A DNA stretch of 64,000 nt from Minisyncoccota bacterium (GCA_035559235.1 DATMBM010000010.1:20257-84256); one strand, 5' to 3'. Shown: positions 6,761 to 17,860, counted from the stretch's first letter. The notes: a model not told the origin generated them from the sequence alone. Made by a program: numbers and translations.

Positions 6761-7666
6761 ATGCAAAAAGCAGATATTGAAAAGAAGATTATCGAGATAG
6801 AAGCGGCCATGGCCGCGCCTGATTTCTGGGCCGATAAGGACAAAGCTCAGATCGCGCTCAAGGAATACCAAGACCTCAAGCAAGCGCTTGCCGGAGCAGA
6901 CGGCTACGACAAAGGAGACGCCATCGTCTCAATTGTCTCCGGCGCCGGTGGCGACGACGCGGAAGATTTCTCCCGCATGTTGCTTGAGATGTACCAGAAA
7001 TATGCCGCGTCGCGAGGCTGGAAAGTGTCGATGCTCTCATCAAATCAGAATTCCATGGGTGGTTTTCGCAGCGTTTCGTTCGATGTCGCGGGCGCAGGTT
7101 CCTACGGCGCGCTCAGGCGCGAGGCGGGCGTGCATCGCTTGGTGCGCATGTCGCCCTTTAACGCCGCGGGAAAGCGCCAAACATCTTTTTCGCTCGTTGA
7201 AGTTTTGCCGCGGCTTCCCGATGTCGGAGAGGCGCACATCCCCGAAAGTGAACTCGAAGTGACGGTTGCGCGCTCCGGCGGTCCGGGCGGTCAGAATGTG
7301 AACAAGCGGGATACTGCGGTGCGCATGACGCACAAGCCCTCCGGCCTCACGGTGCACGTGACGAGTGAACGCAGTCAAGCGCAAAACAGGGAGAAAGCAA
7401 TAGAGATGCTTCGCGGCAAACTGTTCCAAATGAAGCAGGAGGCGCAAGAACGCGAATCGCGCGGTCTCTCCGCCGGCGCCTCTACTAAAATCGAATGGGG
7501 CAGCCAGATCCGTTCGTATGTCCTTCATCCGTACCAGCTCGTCAAAGATCATCGTACCGATCATGAGCGTCGTGACGTCGACCGGGTGCTCGAAGGGGAT
7601 ATCCAATCGTTTATCGACGCGGCAGCCGCGTTGACAGAGCGTACGGTGGGGTATAATGGCCACTAA
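6761..7666 (+). CDS. prfB: peptide chain release factor 2 (short form, no programmed frameshift)
   Basis: GGQ motif (SGGPGGQNVNK) and the RF2-specific SPF tripeptide (RMSPFNAAGKRQTSF). Single uninterrupted 301-aa ORF. Domain 1 is much shorter than in E. coli RF2. The ATG lies 4 nt after the tRNA-Thr 3' end. Confidence 0.85.
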   Translation: MQKADIEKKIIEIEAAMAAPDFWADKDKAQIALKEYQDLKQALAGADGYDKGDAIVSIVSGAGGDDAEDFSRMLLEMYQKYAASRGWKVSMLSSNQNSMGGFRSVSFDVAGAGSYGALRREAGVHRLVRMSPFNAAGKRQTSFSLVEVLPRLPDVGEAHIPESELEVTVARSGGPGGQNVNKRDTAVRMTHKPSGLTVHVTSERSQAQNREKAIEMLRGKLFQMKQEAQERESRGLSAGASTKIEWGSQIRSYVLHPYQLVKDHRTDHERRDVDRVLEGDIQSFIDAAAALTERTVGYNGH

Positions 7667-11249: not shown

Positions 11250-12179
11250 GTGGTGACGATACTGGGGGCATTCATCGTTGCCGTTGCGGCGTGGCTCATG
11301 CCGTTCTTTGCGGACGCGCCGGTAGTGCACCTCCTTCTTCCTGCGCGGGAGGAGCCGCTCAATGCGACGGTTCTCTTCGCGGGCGACATGATGTTCGATC
11401 GCACAATTCGCGCTGCGATGGCAGAAAAGGGGAGTGACCATGTTTTCTCGTGCATTGCGCCGGAGTTGCGGGACGCCGACCTGGTTGTCGCGAATCTTGA
11501 AGGCCCGGTAACGACCCACGATTCAATGAGTCTCGGAAGCGAGATCGGTTCGCTCGAGAACATGACTTTCACGTTTCCCACGACAACCGCGCACCTCCTC
11601 GCACGCTACAACATTCGAGTCGTCTCACTCGCGAACAATCACATCATGAATTTCGGGGACGACGGCCTCATGCAGACGAAGCGATGGCTCGCGGAGGCCG
11701 GTGTCCAGTACTTTGGCGCTCCCGATGATGTCGACCGAACCGCACGTGTCGATATCAAGGGAATTCCGTTTTCATTTATCGGCTGGAGCGATTGGGATAG
11801 CACGACGAAGGACGAAACCCTCGCGCAGATTCGTACGGAGCGAGCGCTTGGCCGCATCGTCGTTGTTTTTGCGCATTGGGGCGAGGAGTATGAGCCGCCG
11901 CCCGAGCGCGTGCGGGCGCTCGGGCGGCACTTTGTCGACGCAGGCGCAACGCTTGTTGTCGGCGCGCATCCCCACATCGTGCAGGAGCACGAAGTATACA
12001 ACGGCACGTATATCTTTTATTCGCTCGGCAATTTCGTGTTCGACCAGTATTGGAATGAAGATGTGCGCACCGGGCTTCTCGTGCGCGCGACATTTAACAA
12101 GTATGGCGTCACGGCAATCGACAGTCTGCCGATCGAACTCGGTCGCGACCGAAGAACGTGCCTCAAAGAAATTGAATAG
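11250..12179 (+). CDS. CapA-family (poly-gamma-glutamate synthesis-type) metallophosphatase protein
   Basis: Motifs GDMMFDR, NLEGP, LANNH, AHWGEEY and GAHPH are characteristic of the CapA/PgsA metallophosphoesterase family. GTG start with N-terminal hydrophobic anchor. Confidence 0.75.
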   Translation: MVTILGAFIVAVAAWLMPFFADAPVVHLLLPAREEPLNATVLFAGDMMFDRTIRAAMAEKGSDHVFSCIAPELRDADLVVANLEGPVTTHDSMSLGSEIGSLENMTFTFPTTTAHLLARYNIRVVSLANNHIMNFGDDGLMQTKRWLAEAGVQYFGAPDDVDRTARVDIKGIPFSFIGWSDWDSTTKDETLAQIRTERALGRIVVVFAHWGEEYEPPPERVRALGRHFVDAGATLVVGAHPHIVQEHEVYNGTYIFYSLGNFVFDQYWNEDVRTGLLVRATFNKYGVTAIDSLPIELGRDRRTCLKEIE

Positions 12180-12206
12180 AGGGCCGTTTTCAGCTATCCT
12201 GTGCGC

Positions 12207-12264
12207 AACTGCCGGATCGCCCGTCTCGCTGAGGCGAGCCGAGGCGGATCTAATGGTAGGACAT
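12207..12264 (+). repeat. truncated 5' copy of tRNA-Gln (26 nt of identity split by a 29-nt hairpin-containing insert); direct repeat of the intact tRNA-Gln 5' end
   Basis: 12207-12219 AACTGCCGGATCG and 12249-12264 TCTAATGGTAGGACAT are identical to 12507-12535 of the intact tRNA-Gln. The intervening 12220-12248 carries a CTCGC-TGAG-GCGAG hairpin. Confidence 0.55.
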
Positions 12265-12508
12265 GTATTTCGTCTACGTGCTAAAATCCGAACGCTCTCG
12301 AAAATCATACGTCGGTCATACCGACAATCTTGAGAAACGGTTGCTGGAGCACAACTTTGGCAAGAATACATCGACGAAACCATTTGCGCCGTGGGTGCGC
12401 GTGTATCACGAGGAATACAAAAGTCGAGAGGCGGCGGTGAAAAGAGAGAAATATTTGAAAAGTCGCGGCGATAGAAGATTCTTTAAAAACGTGGTATTTA
12501 GTACATAA
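12263..12508 (+). CDS. small GIY-YIG nuclease family protein
   Basis: MYFVYVLKS...YVGHTDNLEKRLLEHN is a GIY-YIG signature. 81 aa. The ATG overlaps the end of the tRNA-like fragment, and the stop lies 1 nt before the intact tRNA-Gln. Confidence 0.8.
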   Translation: MYFVYVLKSERSRKSYVGHTDNLEKRLLEHNFGKNTSTKPFAPWVRVYHEEYKSREAAVKREKYLKSRGDRRFFKNVVFST

Positions 12509-12509
12509 C

Positions 12510-12583
12510 TGCCGGATCGTCTAATGGTAGGACATCGCCCTCTGGAGGCGAGTATCTTGGTTCGAGTCCAAGTCCGGCAACCA
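12510..12583 (+). tRNA. tRNA-Gln (anticodon CTG), CCA encoded
   Basis: Acceptor TGCCGGA/TCCGGCA; 3-bp D-stem GTC-TAATGGTAG-GAC; anticodon stem TCGCC/GGCGA with loop CTCTGGA (anticodon CTG); T-arm CTTGG-TTCGAGT-CCAAG; discriminator A then CCA. Confidence 0.8.
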
Positions 12584-12663
12584 CCATATGCTAAGTCAGG
12601 TGACTGACACGCATAGGCATCTATTCTGAAAATGGCATACCTGCTGAGAGCAGTATCCAGAAC

Positions 12664-12690
12664 AAAAATCGCCCCGAAGGGCGATTTTTG
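12664..12690. terminator. bidirectional intrinsic terminator (A5-hairpin-T5)
   Basis: AAAAATCGCCC-CGAA-GGGCGATTTTT: a 7-bp GC-rich stem with a 4-nt loop, flanked by an A-run and a T-run. Confidence 0.55.
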
Positions 12691-12695
12691 TTAGG

Positions 12696-13640
12696 ATGAA
12701 AATCATGAAGAGTTATTACCGCGTGATGCTCGGTCGAAAGAGCGCCTACGCAGATGAGGCCTATAAAGGTAATTTCATTGCGGCCGGATTCATAAAAGAT
12801 AAAGATTTGACCGATCACTTGGTGGAGAATTGGCGGGACTTCAACCGCGAATTTGTACCTCTGTTTATTGAGCAGAATCCTGAGAAAACGAAAATCTCCG
12901 CAGGGCTCGCCTGCGGCATGTTGTGGACGGTTGCCAAGGGTATGCAGATTGGCGACATTGCTTTGTGTCCAGATGGTAAAGGTAACTACTATGTCGGCGA
13001 AGTGACCGGGAATTACGAGTATCACAAAGGAGAACCACTCCCACACCGACGCCCCGTTCGGTGGTTTACAAAAACCATTGCACGCGAAGAGATGAGTGAA
13101 GCGCTCCGGAATTCAACAGGTTCGATCGCTACCGTGAGCAACGTAACAAAGTATGCAAGTGAAATTGAAACGCTCCTTTCCGGAAACGCACCACTCACTA
13201 TCACCACTACCGATGAGACCATAGAAGACCCAACTATTTTTGGACTCGAAAAACACCTCGAAGATTTCCTGGTCTCAAATTGGAAGTCAACCGAGCTCGG
13301 GAAAAACTACGATATCTATGAGGAGGACGATGAAATAGTTGGACAACAATACCCAAGTGACACTGGCCCTATAGACATTCTTGCTATCAGTAAAGATAAG
13401 AAAACGATCCTTGTTGTCGAACTCAAAAAAGGACGTGTGAGCGACGTGGTCGTCGGCCAGTGCCAACGATACATGGGCTACGTGAAGGAAGAGCTTGCAG
13501 AAGATAACCAGGAAGTGCGGGGAGTCATCATTGGGTTTGAAGATGATGTTCGCATCCGCCGTGCGCTCTCGGTCACGAATAACATTGATTTCTATACGTA
13601 TAAGGTCAGCTTCAAGCTCGAGAAAATGAATGGGAAGTAG
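12696..13640 (+). CDS. two-domain nuclease: unknown N-terminal (possibly PUA/EVE-like) domain fused to a C-terminal NucS/DUF91-type PD-(D/E)xK nuclease domain
   Basis: C-terminal PIDILAISKDKKTILVVELKKGRVSDVVVGQCQRYMGYV matches the NucS C-terminal nuclease motif (iDllavD...lvviElKr....v.Ql.rY). The N-terminal ~180 aa is unrecognised; it has a GDIAL...YYVGEV beta-rich pattern. An AGGA element lies upstream, and the alternative start is at 12705. Confidence 0.6.
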   Translation: MKIMKSYYRVMLGRKSAYADEAYKGNFIAAGFIKDKDLTDHLVENWRDFNREFVPLFIEQNPEKTKISAGLACGMLWTVAKGMQIGDIALCPDGKGNYYVGEVTGNYEYHKGEPLPHRRPVRWFTKTIAREEMSEALRNSTGSIATVSNVTKYASEIETLLSGNAPLTITTTDETIEDPTIFGLEKHLEDFLVSNWKSTELGKNYDIYEEDDEIVGQQYPSDTGPIDILAISKDKKTILVVELKKGRVSDVVVGQCQRYMGYVKEELAEDNQEVRGVIIGFEDDVRIRRALSVTNNIDFYTYKVSFKLEKMNGK

Positions 13641-13647
13641 GACACAT

Positions 13648-14085
13648 ATGCAATTCGAATATCCCGAAGATCGGGAATTCTTCGCCAATCTTCTTACCGA
13701 TGGAGATCAGAAGAAGCTCTCGAAATTTAAAGACTACTTTGATTTCAGATCACCCAAAGTAAAACGTGAGGAGTATAACCTCATGCGTGACGCGCTATTC
13801 CAAAAAATCATTAAACGTGACGGATATGTCTGTAGACTTACCATTTCCCCGAGATGTTTGCGCGACCGCGAATTGCAAATTGACCACGTCATCCCGCTCT
13901 CTACCAACATAATCAACAAAACCACCCGTCGAATGAAGGCCCTGCCAGGAAAGAAGGTTGCCGCACAGAGCTTTGGCTCAAATTATCTAGGGAACCTCAT
14001 ATTTGCCTGTCGAGAGTGCAACAGAGAGAAATGGCACCGCTTCTTGGATCGGGAGACCCTGCAGAGGGTACTCAAGAGCATATAG
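13648..14085 (+). CDS. HNH endonuclease
   Basis: CRL...C...DHVIPLS...N...NL...CRECNREKWH is an HNH/zinc-finger signature. AGGA lies 5 nt upstream of the ATG. Starts 7 nt after the stop of the previous gene. Confidence 0.7.
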   Translation: MQFEYPEDREFFANLLTDGDQKKLSKFKDYFDFRSPKVKREEYNLMRDALFQKIIKRDGYVCRLTISPRCLRDRELQIDHVIPLSTNIINKTTRRMKALPGKKVAAQSFGSNYLGNLIFACRECNREKWHRFLDRETLQRVLKSI

Positions 14086-14095
14086 CCAGGGACGC

Positions 14096-14124
14096 TTGAC
14101 AGGGGGGTTTACATTTGATAACCT
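14096..14124 (+). promoter_or_regulatory. sigma70-like promoter (-35 TTGACA, 17-bp spacer, -10 TAACCT) for hsdM; predicted TSS at or near the ATG (leaderless)
   Basis: Perfect TTGACA at 14096-14101 and TAACCT at 14119-14124. The ATG of hsdM lies 7 nt downstream, with no Shine-Dalgarno in between. Confidence 0.4.
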
Positions 14125-14130
14125 TTCCCT

Positions 14131-15924
14131 ATGAAGAAACAGGACTATATCACTACGGCTGACCTGGCAAAGATGCTCGGGGTAAGCCGCGTCTCAGCTC
14201 TCAAGTGGATGAAGAAAGCAGAAAAAGAGCAAGGAATAAAGCTTGTAGAGCTTGGCAGGGGCTTTGTGATAGAGAAGGACTCCCTTCCCAAAGAGCTCAA
14301 GGAGCGGCTTGGAAAGGAGCGCAAGGAGGCCACAGAGAAGGCCATTCGCATAGGCACAAGCCATCATAAGGATATTGATTTCGAGAAAGAGCTTTGGAAC
14401 GCAGCTGATAAGCTCCGGGGAAATATAGACGCGTCCGAGTACAAGCACGTTGTTCTCGGGCTTCTCTTTTTAAAGTATGTCTCTGACGCTTTCTACATGC
14501 GACGTGCGGAGCTGGAACAACGGCTCGCTGATCCAAAGGATAAAGAATTCTATATTGCGGATGCGAAAAGCCGCTCGGTGATTTTGGAGAATCGCGATTC
14601 CTACCGCAGTGCCGGTGTCTTCTACATACCTGAAAAGGCACGATGGGAACACTTGCGTGAGCACGCATCACACTCTGACATTGGGAAATACATAGACGAC
14701 GCGATGACTGCGGTTGAGGAAGAGAACGCAAAACAGCTCAAGGGCGTCTTGCCGAAGATGTATACACGCACGCCGCTTGAGCGTCACGTACTTGGTGAAC
14801 TTGTGAATATTTTCTCTCGTATAAAGTTCAATCACGACATCGACCATGAGAAGGACATGCTCGGGCGCGTGTACGAATACTTTCTCGGACAGTTCGCTTC
14901 GGCAGAGGGCAAACGTGGTGGAGAGTTCTTCAGCCCTCGTTCGCTCGTCCGTCTTCTCATTGAAGTGTTGGAACCATACGAGAACGCACGAATTTTTGAT
15001 CCCGCGGCTGGTAGCGGCGGGATGTTCGTGCAAGCAAGCGCATTTCTGAAAGCTCGCGGCAAAGACGCCGCGCACCTCGGTGTATTTGGCCAAGAGAGCA
15101 ACACCACTACCTGGCGGCTCTGCAAGATGAACCTCGCGATTCGCGGCATCTTCGGGCAGATAGAACAGGGCAACACTTACTATGAGGACAAGTTCTCGGA
15201 CTTACGGGCAGACTTTGTGGCGGCAAATCCGCCGTTTAATGCTGAGTGGGATCCGAAGCGCTTGAGCGACAACGACCCACGCCTCAAGTACGGCACGCCA
15301 CCGTCCTCGAACGCGAACTTTATGTGGATTCAGCATTTCATTCACCATCTCGCTCCAAGCGGCATGGCGGGGTTCATTATGGCAAACGGTGCGCTTGCAG
15401 TCGGAGGTCGCGAAGGAGAGATTCGTAAAAATATTGTTGAGGCGGACCTAGTTGATGTCATCATCGCTTGTCCGCCGAAGCTCTTCTACAACGTCGCGCT
15501 TCCCGTGTCACTCTGGTTTGTGGCGAAGAACAAGAAGGGCGACCGCTTCCGTAACCGTACAGGAGAAACGCTCTTCATAGACGCGCGAGAGCAGTTTGAA
15601 CAAATCTCTCGCAAACAGGTCGTCTTTAATGACGAGCACATCAAGAAAATCACTGATGCTGTACGCGCATGGCGTGGTGAGAAAGGCGCGTCTGAGTACA
15701 AAGACATTCCCGGCTTTTGCAAAGCGGCAAAGCTAGAAGAAATCGCCAAAGCGGGCTATGTGCTCACACCAGGTCGCTATGTCGGCCTCGCCGACGAGGA
15801 GGACGATGGCGTGCCGTTTGAGGAGAAAATGCAAAAGCTCTCGGCAGAGCTCAAAGATGTGTTCAAAAAGGGCGGCGAGCTAGAAGCGCAGATCTTGGCG
15901 AATCTAAAGAAAATCAGTATATGA
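14131..15924 (+). CDS. hsdM: type I restriction-modification N6-adenine DNA methyltransferase subunit M, with an N-terminal HTH extension
   Basis: HsdM N-domain (LWNAADKLRGNIDASEYKHVVLGLLFLKYVSD), AdoMet motif I (FDPAAGSGGM) and motif IV (NPPFN). The first ~80 aa (ITTADLAKMLGVSRVSALKWMKK) looks like an Xis/MerR-type HTH. Confidence 0.9.
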   Translation: MKKQDYITTADLAKMLGVSRVSALKWMKKAEKEQGIKLVELGRGFVIEKDSLPKELKERLGKERKEATEKAIRIGTSHHKDIDFEKELWNAADKLRGNIDASEYKHVVLGLLFLKYVSDAFYMRRAELEQRLADPKDKEFYIADAKSRSVILENRDSYRSAGVFYIPEKARWEHLREHASHSDIGKYIDDAMTAVEEENAKQLKGVLPKMYTRTPLERHVLGELVNIFSRIKFNHDIDHEKDMLGRVYEYFLGQFASAEGKRGGEFFSPRSLVRLLIEVLEPYENARIFDPAAGSGGMFVQASAFLKARGKDAAHLGVFGQESNTTTWRLCKMNLAIRGIFGQIEQGNTYYEDKFSDLRADFVAANPPFNAEWDPKRLSDNDPRLKYGTPPSSNANFMWIQHFIHHLAPSGMAGFIMANGALAVGGREGEIRKNIVEADLVDVIIACPPKLFYNVALPVSLWFVAKNKKGDRFRNRTGETLFIDAREQFEQISRKQVVFNDEHIKKITDAVRAWRGEKGASEYKDIPGFCKAAKLEEIAKAGYVLTPGRYVGLADEEDDGVPFEEKMQKLSAELKDVFKKGGELEAQILANLKKISI

Positions 15925-16628
15925 GCAAGAAAGACGAATACATAAAAAGACTTGAGAGTATATTGGAAACCTACAGGGATTTCCAACGTAAAGCAAAATA
16001 TAATGACCTCAGTGATTTACCAAAAGAAGATAGAAAGTCCCTGGTGACAACTGCGCAAGCCTTCATTTTTCGGACCACGAGCGAAGAATCATTCTATGCG
16101 CGAGAATTAAAAAGAATCATTGCAGAAAAACCTGCGCTTCACTCACACACATCTGAAGTCATGGGAATAGTAGCGAGCTTGAAGAATGATCTCGAAAGCG
16201 GGGCTTTAGAGCTAGATGCAGATCAGAGGGAAAGCCTCGCTGATCCAGCTGGGGTAAATATTTTAGACCTTAAACTCAAACTTGGAGTCCTTGAATTTAT
16301 TGTAGCGGCGCTTTTTGCCCTGTGCTTTACGCTTATCTTCGCCATCATCAAAATACTCGGTCTCGAAATTTACTGGTCGGCACTGTGGCCATATCTACTA
16401 ATGTTCTTTGGCCTTGCGTTTTCTGGGATGTACATCGTACTGCCGACAATCCAGATATCTAGAAAAGTGGGCCCGAACGTAAAGGATATATACAACGAAT
16501 TTATATTAGAGTTCAGTGGAAAAAGTAAACTCGGGAAAATAAAAACAGTAGGTTCCATTCTCTTGGGTATTGCAGCGGTGATTTCGTTACTTGTGTCCCT
16601 TCTCCCTTACCTTGATAAATATTTATGA
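15921..16628 (+). CDS. hypothetical protein inserted between hsdM and hsdS: soluble N-terminal ~120-aa domain plus C-terminal 4-TM domain
   Basis: ATGA overlaps at both ends (15921-15924 and 16625-16628). AT-rich codon usage. Hydrophobic helices at FIVAALFALCFTLIFAIIKIL, YWSALWPYLLMFFGLAF, IVLPTI and SILLGIAAVISLLVSLL. No family recognised. Confidence 0.55.
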   Translation: MSKKDEYIKRLESILETYRDFQRKAKYNDLSDLPKEDRKSLVTTAQAFIFRTTSEESFYARELKRIIAEKPALHSHTSEVMGIVASLKNDLESGALELDADQRESLADPAGVNILDLKLKLGVLEFIVAALFALCFTLIFAIIKILGLEIYWSALWPYLLMFFGLAFSGMYIVLPTIQISRKVGPNVKDIYNEFILEFSGKSKLGKIKTVGSILLGIAAVISLLVSLLPYLDKYL

Positions 16629-17860
16629 CCACAAAAACCAAAACAACTTGGCGGACGGTGAGGTTGAGGGATGTTATACAGAACCCTCTTGGTGGGGACT
16701 GGGGCAAAGAATTACCTGACCCTCAATTTTCTGAAGAAGTTTACGCTATACGCGGAACTGATTTCTCGGCGTTGGAAACCGGAGACTTTTCCAAGGTAAA
16801 AACGCGCTTTATCAAAAAAACTAGCCTTGATAAGCGCCGTCTGGTTGAGGGTGACATAGTGATGGAAATTTCTGGTGGCAGTAAAGGTCAGCCGGTTGGT
16901 CGATCATTTATTATAACCTCGGGTTTGCTTACGAAGGCAGGGAAACCTCTTGTTTACTCGAATTTTTGTAGACGCCTTCGTGTATCAGACGACAATGATC
17001 CACGCTATCTTTTCTATTTCTTACAGAAGTTCTATTCTTCCCCAGAAGTACTAAGCTTCCAGACTCAATCAACTGGAATTAGTAATTTTCATTTCACCGC
17101 TTTTGTTGAGTATAAAGAGATTTTTGTGCCCAGGCTTGACGTACAGGTAGAAATTGGAAGAATTCTGGCGGCATTTGACGAGAAGATTGAGAACAACAAC
17201 CGCATCATCAAGACGCTTGAAGAAATGGCGCAGGCGATTTTTAAGAAGCAATTCGACGTTCCCGTCGATGATCTACCGGAAGGGTGGGAGGTGAAAAAAC
17301 TTGGAGAGTTAGGAAAAGTCGTCACAGGGAAAACTCCTAGTACAAAAGACAAAGAGAACTTTGGTACAGATTATCCTTTTATCACCATACCCGATCTACA
17401 GAATGGAGTATTCGTTATTAAGACAGAGAGATTTTTATCAGATCGTGGAGCGAATACTATGCGCGCCTCCAAACTCCCCGCAGGGGCAATTTGTGTGAGC
17501 TGCATCGCGACTATTGGTTTGGTGGGAATTGTTACACGAGAGAGCTTTACAAACCAGCAAATCAACAGCATTATTCCGCGCTCCAAAATTCTTCAACCTT
17601 TCATCTTCTTACTCTTGCAAAAAATGAAGGGCAGTCTTCAATCCCATGCTTCTGGAGGTACGGCTGCTCCAATCATCAGCAAAAGTGCTTTTGAGAAGAT
17701 TGAGATAGTTTTCCCAACGGAGAAAGTACTGAAGGATTTTTATGAAGTAGTAAATCCGATGTTTGACAAAGTTTTGGCAATTCTAGAAGAGAACCAAAAA
17801 CTTGCCGCTACGCGCGACCTCCTCTTGCCGCGTCTAATGAGTGGAAAAATACGAGTATGA
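16625..17860 (+). CDS. hsdS: type I restriction-modification specificity subunit S (two target-recognition domains)
   Basis: Conserved HsdS central and C-terminal coiled-coil spacers (RILAAFDEKIENNNRIIKTLEEMAQAIFKKQF; VLAILEENQKLAATRDLLLPRLMSGKI) flank two variable TRDs. Confidence 0.85.
   Translation: MTTKTKTTWRTVRLRDVIQNPLGGDWGKELPDPQFSEEVYAIRGTDFSALETGDFSKVKTRFIKKTSLDKRRLVEGDIVMEISGGSKGQPVGRSFIITSGLLTKAGKPLVYSNFCRRLRVSDDNDPRYLFYFLQKFYSSPEVLSFQTQSTGISNFHFTAFVEYKEIFVPRLDVQVEIGRILAAFDEKIENNNRIIKTLEEMAQAIFKKQFDVPVDDLPEGWEVKKLGELGKVVTGKTPSTKDKENFGTDYPFITIPDLQNGVFVIKTERFLSDRGANTMRASKLPAGAICVSCIATIGLVGIVTRESFTNQQINSIIPRSKILQPFIFLLLQKMKGSLQSHASGGTAAPIISKSAFEKIEIVFPTEKVLKDFYEVVNPMFDKVLAILEENQKLAATRDLLLPRLMSGKIRV

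Follow-up and report, generated by a model that had tools for sequence, protein, structure and literature searches.

Modification-dependent restriction typically uses McrB, GmrSD or PD-(D/E)xK proteins as effectors, coupled to domains that read a modified base; EVE-like relatives of the reader discussed below recognize 5mC or 5hmC, and YTH-like ones m6A. In E. coli K-12, mrr and mcrBC lie beside hsdRMS, together known as the hsd-mrr-mcrBC immigration control region. The fusion of a PUA-like reader to a nuclease, as well as the association of EVE-like modules with type I restriction-modification (R-M) loci, are known in kind (Lutz 2019; Bell 2020; Pastor 2021), and for EVE-like domains that are tied to type I R-M and fused to either PD-(D/E)xK nucleases or McrB, a role in restricting modified DNA has been predicted (Bell et al. 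2020, PMC7641849). An enzyme with this architecture is VcaM4I, specific for 5mC/5hmC, in which a reader (residues 1-147) is followed by a linker and a nuclease (residues 179-309), with a Tyr and a Trp residue (Y130/W82) sandwiching the flipped base (PMC7897488). From another direction, the criterion that defined the PDC families was that they lie embedded in loci of the type I R-M, BREX and DISARM systems (Payne et al., bioRxiv 10.1101/2024.01.29.577857). PDC-S02, having the Pfam domain pair DUF8426 and NucS_C, is already catalogued as a candidate defence family; in the only published test of PDC-S02, one representative placed in E. coli B failed to protect it against T4, T5 or T7 (10.1101/2024.09.26.614923).

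We here analyzed a 64,000-nt stretch of DNA from a Minisyncoccota bacterium (the window), in which two adjacent genes, here called gene A and the HNH gene, stand directly 5' of a complete type I R-M operon on the same strand. An earlier sequence-only reading had described both open reading frames and the downstream operon, and the ORF list, the sequence itself and Pfam scans of HsdM, HsdS and HsdR all agreed with that description. The features of the locus were as follows.

12510..12583, plus strand: tRNA-Gln(CTG), found by ARAGORN, at the left edge of an approximately 10-kb low-GC island holding the whole cassette
12664..12690, plus strand: perfect hairpin AAAAATCGCCC-CGAA-GGGCGATTTTT, read off the sequence, between tRNA-Gln and the gene A ribosome-binding site and within the gene A leader
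12696..13640, plus strand: gene A open reading frame, 314 aa, with the likely true start at 12705
12696..13184, plus strand: N-terminal domain of gene A, aa 1-163, Pfam DUF8426, a predicted EVE/YTH-like PUA-superfamily reader with a two-helix insertion at aa 46-82
13185..13247, plus strand: inter-domain linker of gene A, aa 164-184, with pLDDT below 50 over residues 164-184 in the full-length model
13248..13640, plus strand: C-terminal predicted NucS-type PD-(D/E)xK nuclease domain of gene A, aa 185-314, with D227, E242 and K244, and also Q255 and Y259
13374-13376, 13419-13421 and 13425-13427, plus strand: putative catalytic codons of gene A for D227, E242 and K244, respectively
13648..14085, plus strand: putative standalone HNH endonuclease, 145 aa (Pfam HNH 1.1e-6; PHROG HNH families)
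14131..15924, plus strand: HsdM, type I m6A methyltransferase subunit (Pfam N6_Mtase 5e-104, HsdM_N 3e-28)
15921..16628, plus strand: gene for a 235-aa protein of unassigned function (ORF list), between hsdM and hsdS with 4-nt overlaps
16625..17860, plus strand: HsdS specificity subunit (Pfam Methylase_S 1.2e-40, in two stretches)
17857..18585, plus strand: DUF3800 gene between hsdS and hsdR (Pfam DUF3800 8e-12; PADLOC DUF3800_VII 2.7e-6)
18719..21757, plus strand: HsdR restriction/translocase subunit (Pfam HSDR_N, SWI2_SNF2, T1R_D3-like and T1RH-like_C)

The R-M array thus runs in the order HsdM, 235-aa protein, HsdS, DUF3800 protein and HsdR, with the junctions being 4-nt overlaps or short gaps. 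The HsdM_N match begins at residue 85 of HsdM, corresponding to an extra N-terminal extension of about 80 aa, and the 235-aa protein gave no match in Pfam, PADLOC, NCBIfam or PHROGs. Gene A ends with a TAG at 13638-13640, followed by the seven bases GACACAT and then the ATG of the HNH gene at 13648, and an AGGA at 13639-13642 lies 5 nt 5' of that ATG, so that both the gap and the separate Shine-Dalgarno site of the HNH gene were as first described. An overlapping ATG at 13630 is a second candidate start of the HNH gene; an NCBI entry 100% identical to the HNH protein has the same start as used here, MQFEYPEDREF. Translation of gene A probably begins at the ATG at 12705 (M4), because the homologues begin with MKNYYR aligned with M4, and this ATG is found 9 nt after an AGGA at 12692-12695.

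With regards to the family of gene A, the PADLOC PDC-S02 HMM (PDLC04799) matched residues 4-309 of 314 with an E-value of 3.1e-161, covering positions 1-306 of the 308 in the profile, and gene A is thus a full-length member of this single-gene candidate family. Relatives numbered more than 8000 in a large protein database, in both Bacteria and Archaea, with 65-83% identity among the nearest approximately 200 that were examined. The novelty that had been proposed for the 314-aa protein family could therefore not be upheld. All of the best 120 homologues (73-98% identical) carried PF28530 together with NucS_C (PF01939) in precomputed Pfam annotation, where PF28530 is DUF8426 according to a gene-context look-up. 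A literature search for 'DUF8426' found no paper, and a preprint on END nucleases concerned a different family, being iEndoIII fusions. What is modestly new herein is the fold-level annotation of DUF8426 together with its conservation pattern.

The relatives were found in at least 443 cases in a set of contigs with one genome per species, at 63-79% identity, with carriers including Nitrosopumilus, Methanosarcinales, Nanoarchaeota, many CPR lineages, Gamma- and Deltaproteobacteria, Bacteroidota and Planctomycetota. Across Bacteria and Archaea this gives a patchy pattern that resembles HGT, and the GC content of the gene ranged from 28 to 57% among the relatives compared. Comparing the gene in the window to 78 relatives, we found the synonymous sites to be saturated, with a third-position identity of about 35%, at a dN of 0.12-0.30, so that the gene has been under long-term purifying selection and encodes a functional protein. 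Gene A hence encodes an old and widely transferred protein under strong purifying selection, and for a defence nuclease it is unusual to keep 65-80% identity from one phylum to another. In 2.9 million viral contigs we found only three relatives; a phage origin of the family was therefore dropped, and the family can be considered as essentially cellular.

The C-terminal part of gene A, which had been recognized as NucS-C-like from the sequence, matched Pfam NucS_C over residues 203-280 with 32.3 bits against a gathering score of 24. When aligned to NucS of P. abyssi (2vld), residues D227, E242 and K244 of gene A fell opposite D160, E174 and K176, and this triad was invariant among the homologues, as was the Q/Y motif (Q255, Y259). 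The domain is thus a predicted NucS-type PD-(D/E)xK nuclease with its catalytic triad intact. Could gene A then be a genuine NucS/EndoMS mismatch repair enzyme, or some other housekeeping nuclease? The Pfam match would agree with that, as would the 'endonuclease NucS' label found in RefSeq and in some MAG annotations, and NucS/EndoMS indeed has the nuclease fold and the D/E/K triad in common with gene A. However, the NCBIfam equivalogs for NucS gave only 43.5 bits (NF003270, cut-off 216) and 25 bits (NF002876, cut-off 252), with the similarity limited to the C-terminal part, and the N-terminal domain is entirely different, having been swapped for DUF8426. Furthermore, gene A is found in a low-GC island with R-M genes, with a patchy and HGT-like distribution in its family, which is a context of defence and not of repair. 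With the equivalog scores being that far below the cut-offs, and with a different N-terminal domain, we regard the housekeeping explanation as ruled out, leaving it hardly any chance of being correct. On plasmid-borne copies the RefSeq label is 'endonuclease NucS domain-containing protein', and the JGI label on homologues is 'restriction system protein'.

The first approximately 180 residues had been said to match nothing. This held for residues 1-180 as a single sequence searched in local copies of Pfam, NCBIfam and PDB sequences, but not for the newer Pfam release, where the domain is DUF8426 (PF28530), a model that is absent from the local Pfam copy. The local copy would include the EVE and DCD models, and these do not detect DUF8426. 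A profile built from an N-domain alignment of 37 sequences (34-56% identity) also showed no similarity to EVE, YTH or other families in local Pfam and PDB sequences, including none to VcaM4I-type EVE domains at the level of sequence. Residues 1-168 gave 1103 matches among 1.8 billion cluster representatives. A structural model of only the N-terminal domain, made from a diverse alignment, had a pLDDT of 96.3 and a pTM of 0.89; it superseded an AF2 model of full-length gene A that was mediocre, with a pLDDT of 76. The best single match of the N-domain model was VcaM4I's DNA-binding EVE domain; also among the matches listed were two other EVE proteins, THYN1 in complex with 5mC DNA, ASCH, and the N-terminal McrB domains of S. 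marinus and T. gammatolerans. The hint of a PUA/EVE-like reader that had been drawn from a beta-strand pattern was thus borne out by the model, and we predict DUF8426 to be an EVE/YTH-like modified-base reader of the PUA superfamily. This fold assignment is one of structure prediction, because the profile searches gave no sequence similarity.

Within the predicted reader, Y107, R119 and W123 were invariant in the diverse set, with F49, D87 and H117 being nearly so. An equivalence between these conserved residues and the Tyr/Trp pocket of VcaM4I is only suggestive in the model. The order of reader, linker and nuclease in VcaM4I is mirrored by gene A, but the two readers are only about 14% identical, that of gene A has the additional two-helix insertion at aa 46-82, and the nuclease is of the HNH type in the VcaM4I/TspA15I group (EVE-HNH, PDB 6yex) and of the predicted NucS-type PD-(D/E)xK fold in gene A.

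We also scanned ten long DUF8426-bearing proteins for partner domains. An AAA_5 domain of the McrB type was found in four of them (one of these also with MrcB_N and DUF4357), GmrSD_N/C in two (one with RAMA, DUF4357 and DNA_binding_1) and an HSDR_N-type nuclease in one, with the remainder carrying DUF900, CBS or MORN. McrB and PD-(D/E)xK are likewise fusion partners of the EVE/ASCH/DCD domains that occur together with type I R-M, also as standalone proteins (Bell, Wolf & Koonin 2020, PMC7641849), and the predicted logic is shared, in that a PUA-like reader tied to type I R-M would extend restriction to modified DNA. DUF8426 seems to act as an exchangeable specificity module, similarly to EVE, YTH, SRA or MrcB_N. 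A YTH- or ASCH-like domain could alternatively read a modified base in RNA, such as m6A or a tRNA modification, with the nuclease cleaving the RNA. We give this explanation a very slim chance, since the nucleases nearest to it in fold (NucS, restriction enzymes, HamA and Shedu) are DNA enzymes, the fusions to McrB and GmrSD as well as the type I R-M context are themes of DNA restriction, and the best match of the N-domain is an EVE domain that binds DNA. DNA would thereby be the probable substrate of gene A.

The genomic company of gene A was surveyed in the loci of 80 relatives, including flanks of at most 6 kb in either direction. Homologues of HsdM, HsdS or HsdR were found within 6 kb in 38 of the 80 loci, in all 38 cases on the same strand as gene A, with gene A commonly positioned between hsdS and hsdR, and also seen directly upstream of hsdM as in the window, between hsdM and hsdS, or after hsdR. 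A 4-nt overlap with the preceding gene was seen in at least nine loci. When nearest neighbours of at least 100 aa were analyzed by Pfam, HsdR domains were found in 13 of 67 downstream and Methylase_S in 12 of 70 upstream, and an annotated plasmid of Acinetobacter pittii carries the order hsdM-hsdS-gene A-Abi-hsdR, with its gene A being 60% identical. The context of gene A is exactly the 'guilt-by-embedding' pattern of Payne et al., and with regards to domain pair and type I R-M embedding there is no structural difference between gene A and PDC-S02. The window differs from the PDC-S02 habit of residing inside the operon, as gene A here heads it, upstream of hsdM and with the additional HNH gene intervening.

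The position between hsdS and hsdR is also that of PrrC in its operon, which raises the possibility of a PrrC-like guard, where the type I complex would hold gene A inactive until a phage anti-restriction protein (Ocr/Stp/ArdA-like) frees it as an abortive-infection nuclease, with the EVE-like domain having a regulatory or docking role. Payne et al. (10.1101/2024.01.29.577857) have discussed both PrrC as a precedent and the logic of embedding, the complete co-orientation (38/38) and the often overlapping stop and start codons fit well with a guard, and it would account for the lack of protection when one PDC-S02 gene was transferred by itself to E. coli B. Type I genes were, however, missing within 6 kb in about half of the relatives, and the position in the operon varied (before hsdM, M/S, S/R or after hsdR). 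The Hsd proteins near gene A relatives were moreover only 25-40% identical, while gene A itself kept 65-80%, which argues against a conserved protein-protein interface, and the fusions of the N-domain to McrB and GmrSD point to reading of DNA modifications. We therefore consider a guard function to be rather improbable.

The second gene of the pair had a Pfam HNH match of 1.1e-6 (cut-off 21.4 bits), and its product contains a D79-H80 motif, N116, N125 and H130, as well as two pairs of Cys residues (C62/C70 and C121/C124). All 16 homologues in the alignment kept D79-H80, N116/N125/H130 and the CxxC at C121/C124, this being a tiny family with 16 homologues in the database. The protein is thus a member of the HNH superfamily, with a beta-beta-alpha-Me motif having a catalytic His and zinc-binding Cys pairs. 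The sequence-only reading had regarded gene A and the HNH gene as one two-gene nuclease system, and the 7 nt between them, the shared strand and the own Shine-Dalgarno sequence of the HNH gene could be seen in that light, together with the conservation of the pair in a sister contig (98% identity for gene A, 85% for HNH). An obligate restriction system with two nuclease folds acting upon one substrate was nonetheless largely refuted by the distribution of the two genes. Using tblastn with the HNH protein of the window, none of the 80 gene A loci gave a match, an HMM of all 16 family members gave none at E<=10 against six-frame ORFs of the same loci, and Pfam scans of nearest gene A neighbours showed no HNH among the 25 most frequent families.

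The sister contig was the only other place where the pair was found, and as it has the same junction of tRNA-Gln, hairpin and gene A, in addition to the identities given above, it represents one event and not an independent co-occurrence. The cross-genome comparison proposed in the sequence-only reading thereby came close to showing two genes that never co-occur elsewhere. Conversely, the HNH family occurred without gene A in three of four surveyed contexts. One homologue, from another lineage than the window, lies immediately upstream of the gene for an HsdM of 597 aa, which shares with HsdM of the window 61% identity as well as the N-terminal extension; a second lies upstream of a KAP-NTPase and GmrSD, with a serine recombinase and a methyltransferase as neighbours; and the context of the third was uninformative. 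It is thus highly improbable that the two genes form one obligate system. The HNH gene is a separate small nuclease gene, associated with the hsdM module and with positions at the head of further defence cassettes, and in relation to gene A it is an unrelated passenger, neither a subunit nor a conserved partner.

Between about 12 and 22 kb the GC content of the window drops to 43-51%, from 55-60%, and because this drop begins right after tRNA-Gln, we conclude that the whole array is an approximately 10-kb horizontally acquired island beside that tRNA, with gene A at its head. Neither an integrase nor convincing att-type direct repeats bounding the island were found. The sole repeat found was a 5' fragment of tRNA-Gln around a GIY-YIG gene. 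The hairpin at 12664..12690, whose stem is kept in the sister contig with a different loop, is probably the terminator of the tRNA; a consensus terminator scan did not report it.

Since the NucS-type PD-(D/E)xK nuclease appears intact and is joined to a predicted reader, modification-dependent restriction is the best reading of gene A taken alone, whereby this part of the sequence-only proposal was sustained. Specifically, gene A probably encodes a type IV (modification-dependent) restriction endonuclease that works as one polypeptide and needs no NTP, within the PDC-S02 (DUF8426-NucS_C) family. The N-terminal EVE/YTH-like beta-barrel would bind DNA and flip a modified base into a conserved pocket, for which Y107, H117, R119 and W123 are the candidate residues, and the PD-(D/E)xK domain (D227, E242, K244), joined to the reader through the flexible linker, would cut nearby. 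The nuclease domain probably dimerises, as do NucS and other two-domain type IV enzymes. With a predicted modified-base reader and a tethered nuclease, gene A would target phage DNA whose modifications evade the co-encoded type I system, with the two activities serving as complementary arms, comparable to mrr and mcrBC next to hsdRMS in E. coli K-12.

PUA-domain type IV enzymes are usually found away from methyltransferases, with VcaM4I-type genes being rarely near them (Lutz et al. 2019, PMC6765204), whereas the gene A family, against that trend, habitually resides beside type I R-M and so adjoins an m6A methyltransferase. The adjacent type I m6A methyltransferase fits with a type IV role only if the reader ignores its mark or the sequence context thereof, and it argues against indiscriminate reading of m6A, while being compatible with m6A reading that is limited by context. 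A related coexistence is that of Mrr with EcoKI. Mrr of E. coli resembles the enzyme predicted for gene A in being a type IV nuclease of the PD-(D/E)xK kind whose N-terminal domain reads DNA and which has a type I R-M neighbour; the N-terminal domain of Mrr is however a winged helix, compared to the PUA-like barrel predicted for gene A, and in Pfam the catalytic domain of gene A matches NucS_C and not Mrr_cat.

A more far-reaching idea, which we consider possible but unlikely, is that DUF8426, which keeps 65-80% identity between Archaea, CPR bacteria and Proteobacteria although synonymous sites are saturated, forms a branch of its own in the PUA superfamily, one that evolves very slowly. It might read a DNA mark, or a mark together with its context, outside those of the characterised type IV enzymes, or be coupled to the type I R-M complex that often surrounds it through a hand-off, either physical or functional. 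If so, its reading would constitute a new specificity class, or a new mode of coupled type I/type IV restriction.

The gene A copy in the window is an ordinary member of its family, and the label 'endonuclease NucS' on genes of this family is misleading for genome annotation. If gene A works as predicted, DUF8426 and PDC-S02, which is among the most abundant PADLOC candidates, would gain a concrete mechanism in which an EVE/YTH-like reader that flips bases drives a nuclease of the NucS type, and the enzyme would be a PD-(D/E)xK counterpart to the EVE-HNH enzymes, possibly of use in epigenetic mapping as a new modification-specific nuclease. It would also explain why these genes ride inside type I R-M operons, with the type I system acting against unmodified DNA and gene A against modified DNA.

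Gene A, which encodes the DUF8426–NucS_C protein, lies in an island of about 10 kb having a GC content of 43–51%, as compared with 55–60% in its flanks (window 12000–22300). The island starts immediately 3' of a tRNA-Gln gene and contains gene A, the small standalone HNH endonuclease gene and the type I R-M operon, within which two further genes are embedded, as well as a 175-aa ORF. Searches for an integrase and for a bounding repeat found neither. The features of the island and its left border, apart from gene A, the HNH gene and the hsd genes, were as follows.

12263–12508: GIY-YIG nuclease ORF, 81 aa (Pfam, 5e-15)
12510–12583: intact tRNA-Gln
15921–16628: gene for a 235-aa protein, embedded in the type I operon, no family match
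17857–18585: gene for a DUF3800 protein, embedded in the type I operon (PADLOC DUF3800_VII, 2.7e-6)
21763–22290: 175-aa ORF, without Pfam match

The GIY-YIG ORF was found to be exactly flanked by a partial duplicate of the tRNA-Gln 5'-end on one side and the intact tRNA-Gln on the other (region 12210–12583), with the partial duplicate reading, in order, TGCCGGATCG, a 29-nt insert and TCTAATGGTAGGACAT. It thus looks like a small mobile gene that was inserted at tRNA-Gln with target duplication. A GC-rich, perfect hairpin bordered by runs of A and of T (12664–12690) lies only about 5 nt 5' of the Shine–Dalgarno sequence of gene A; in the sister contig (L081, approximately 7320–7350) its stem is conserved while the loop differs (CGAA versus TTCG). 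This hairpin could be the tRNA terminator, also gating expression of gene A.

In the contexts of HNH homologues (L082–L088), HNH-family members occurred as the first gene of defence cargo, being followed by either a KAP NTPase and GmrSD or by HsdM-PIN_12-HsdS-AAA_15, with a diverging module of a serine recombinase and a ParB/N6_N4 methyltransferase on the opposite side. Because of this arrangement, the small HNH may be a marker of the cargo boundary in an integrative element. The HsdM encoded downstream of HNH in the window carries an N-terminal extension of about 80 aa (residues 1–84, window 14131–14380) before its HsdM_N domain; as judged by eye, the extension looks like a helix-turn-helix (…TTADLAKMLGVSRVSALKWMKK…). 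This extension is also kept in the 61% identical HsdM of L085, likewise encoded downstream of an HNH homologue. The genes for the 235-aa and DUF3800 proteins are embedded in the operon with 4-nt overlaps. Weak DUF3800 homologues (about 24% identity, tblastn) also adjoin gene A relatives at two loci, L010 and L046.

Across Archaea, CPR bacteria and Proteobacteria, members of the gene A family showed 63–79% amino-acid identity (L001–L080 compared with window 12696–13640), with synonymous sites being saturated between the window gene and these relatives. The GC content of the relatives' genes spans 28–57%, reflecting that their base composition has ameliorated. Protein evolution this slow is odd for a defence nuclease.
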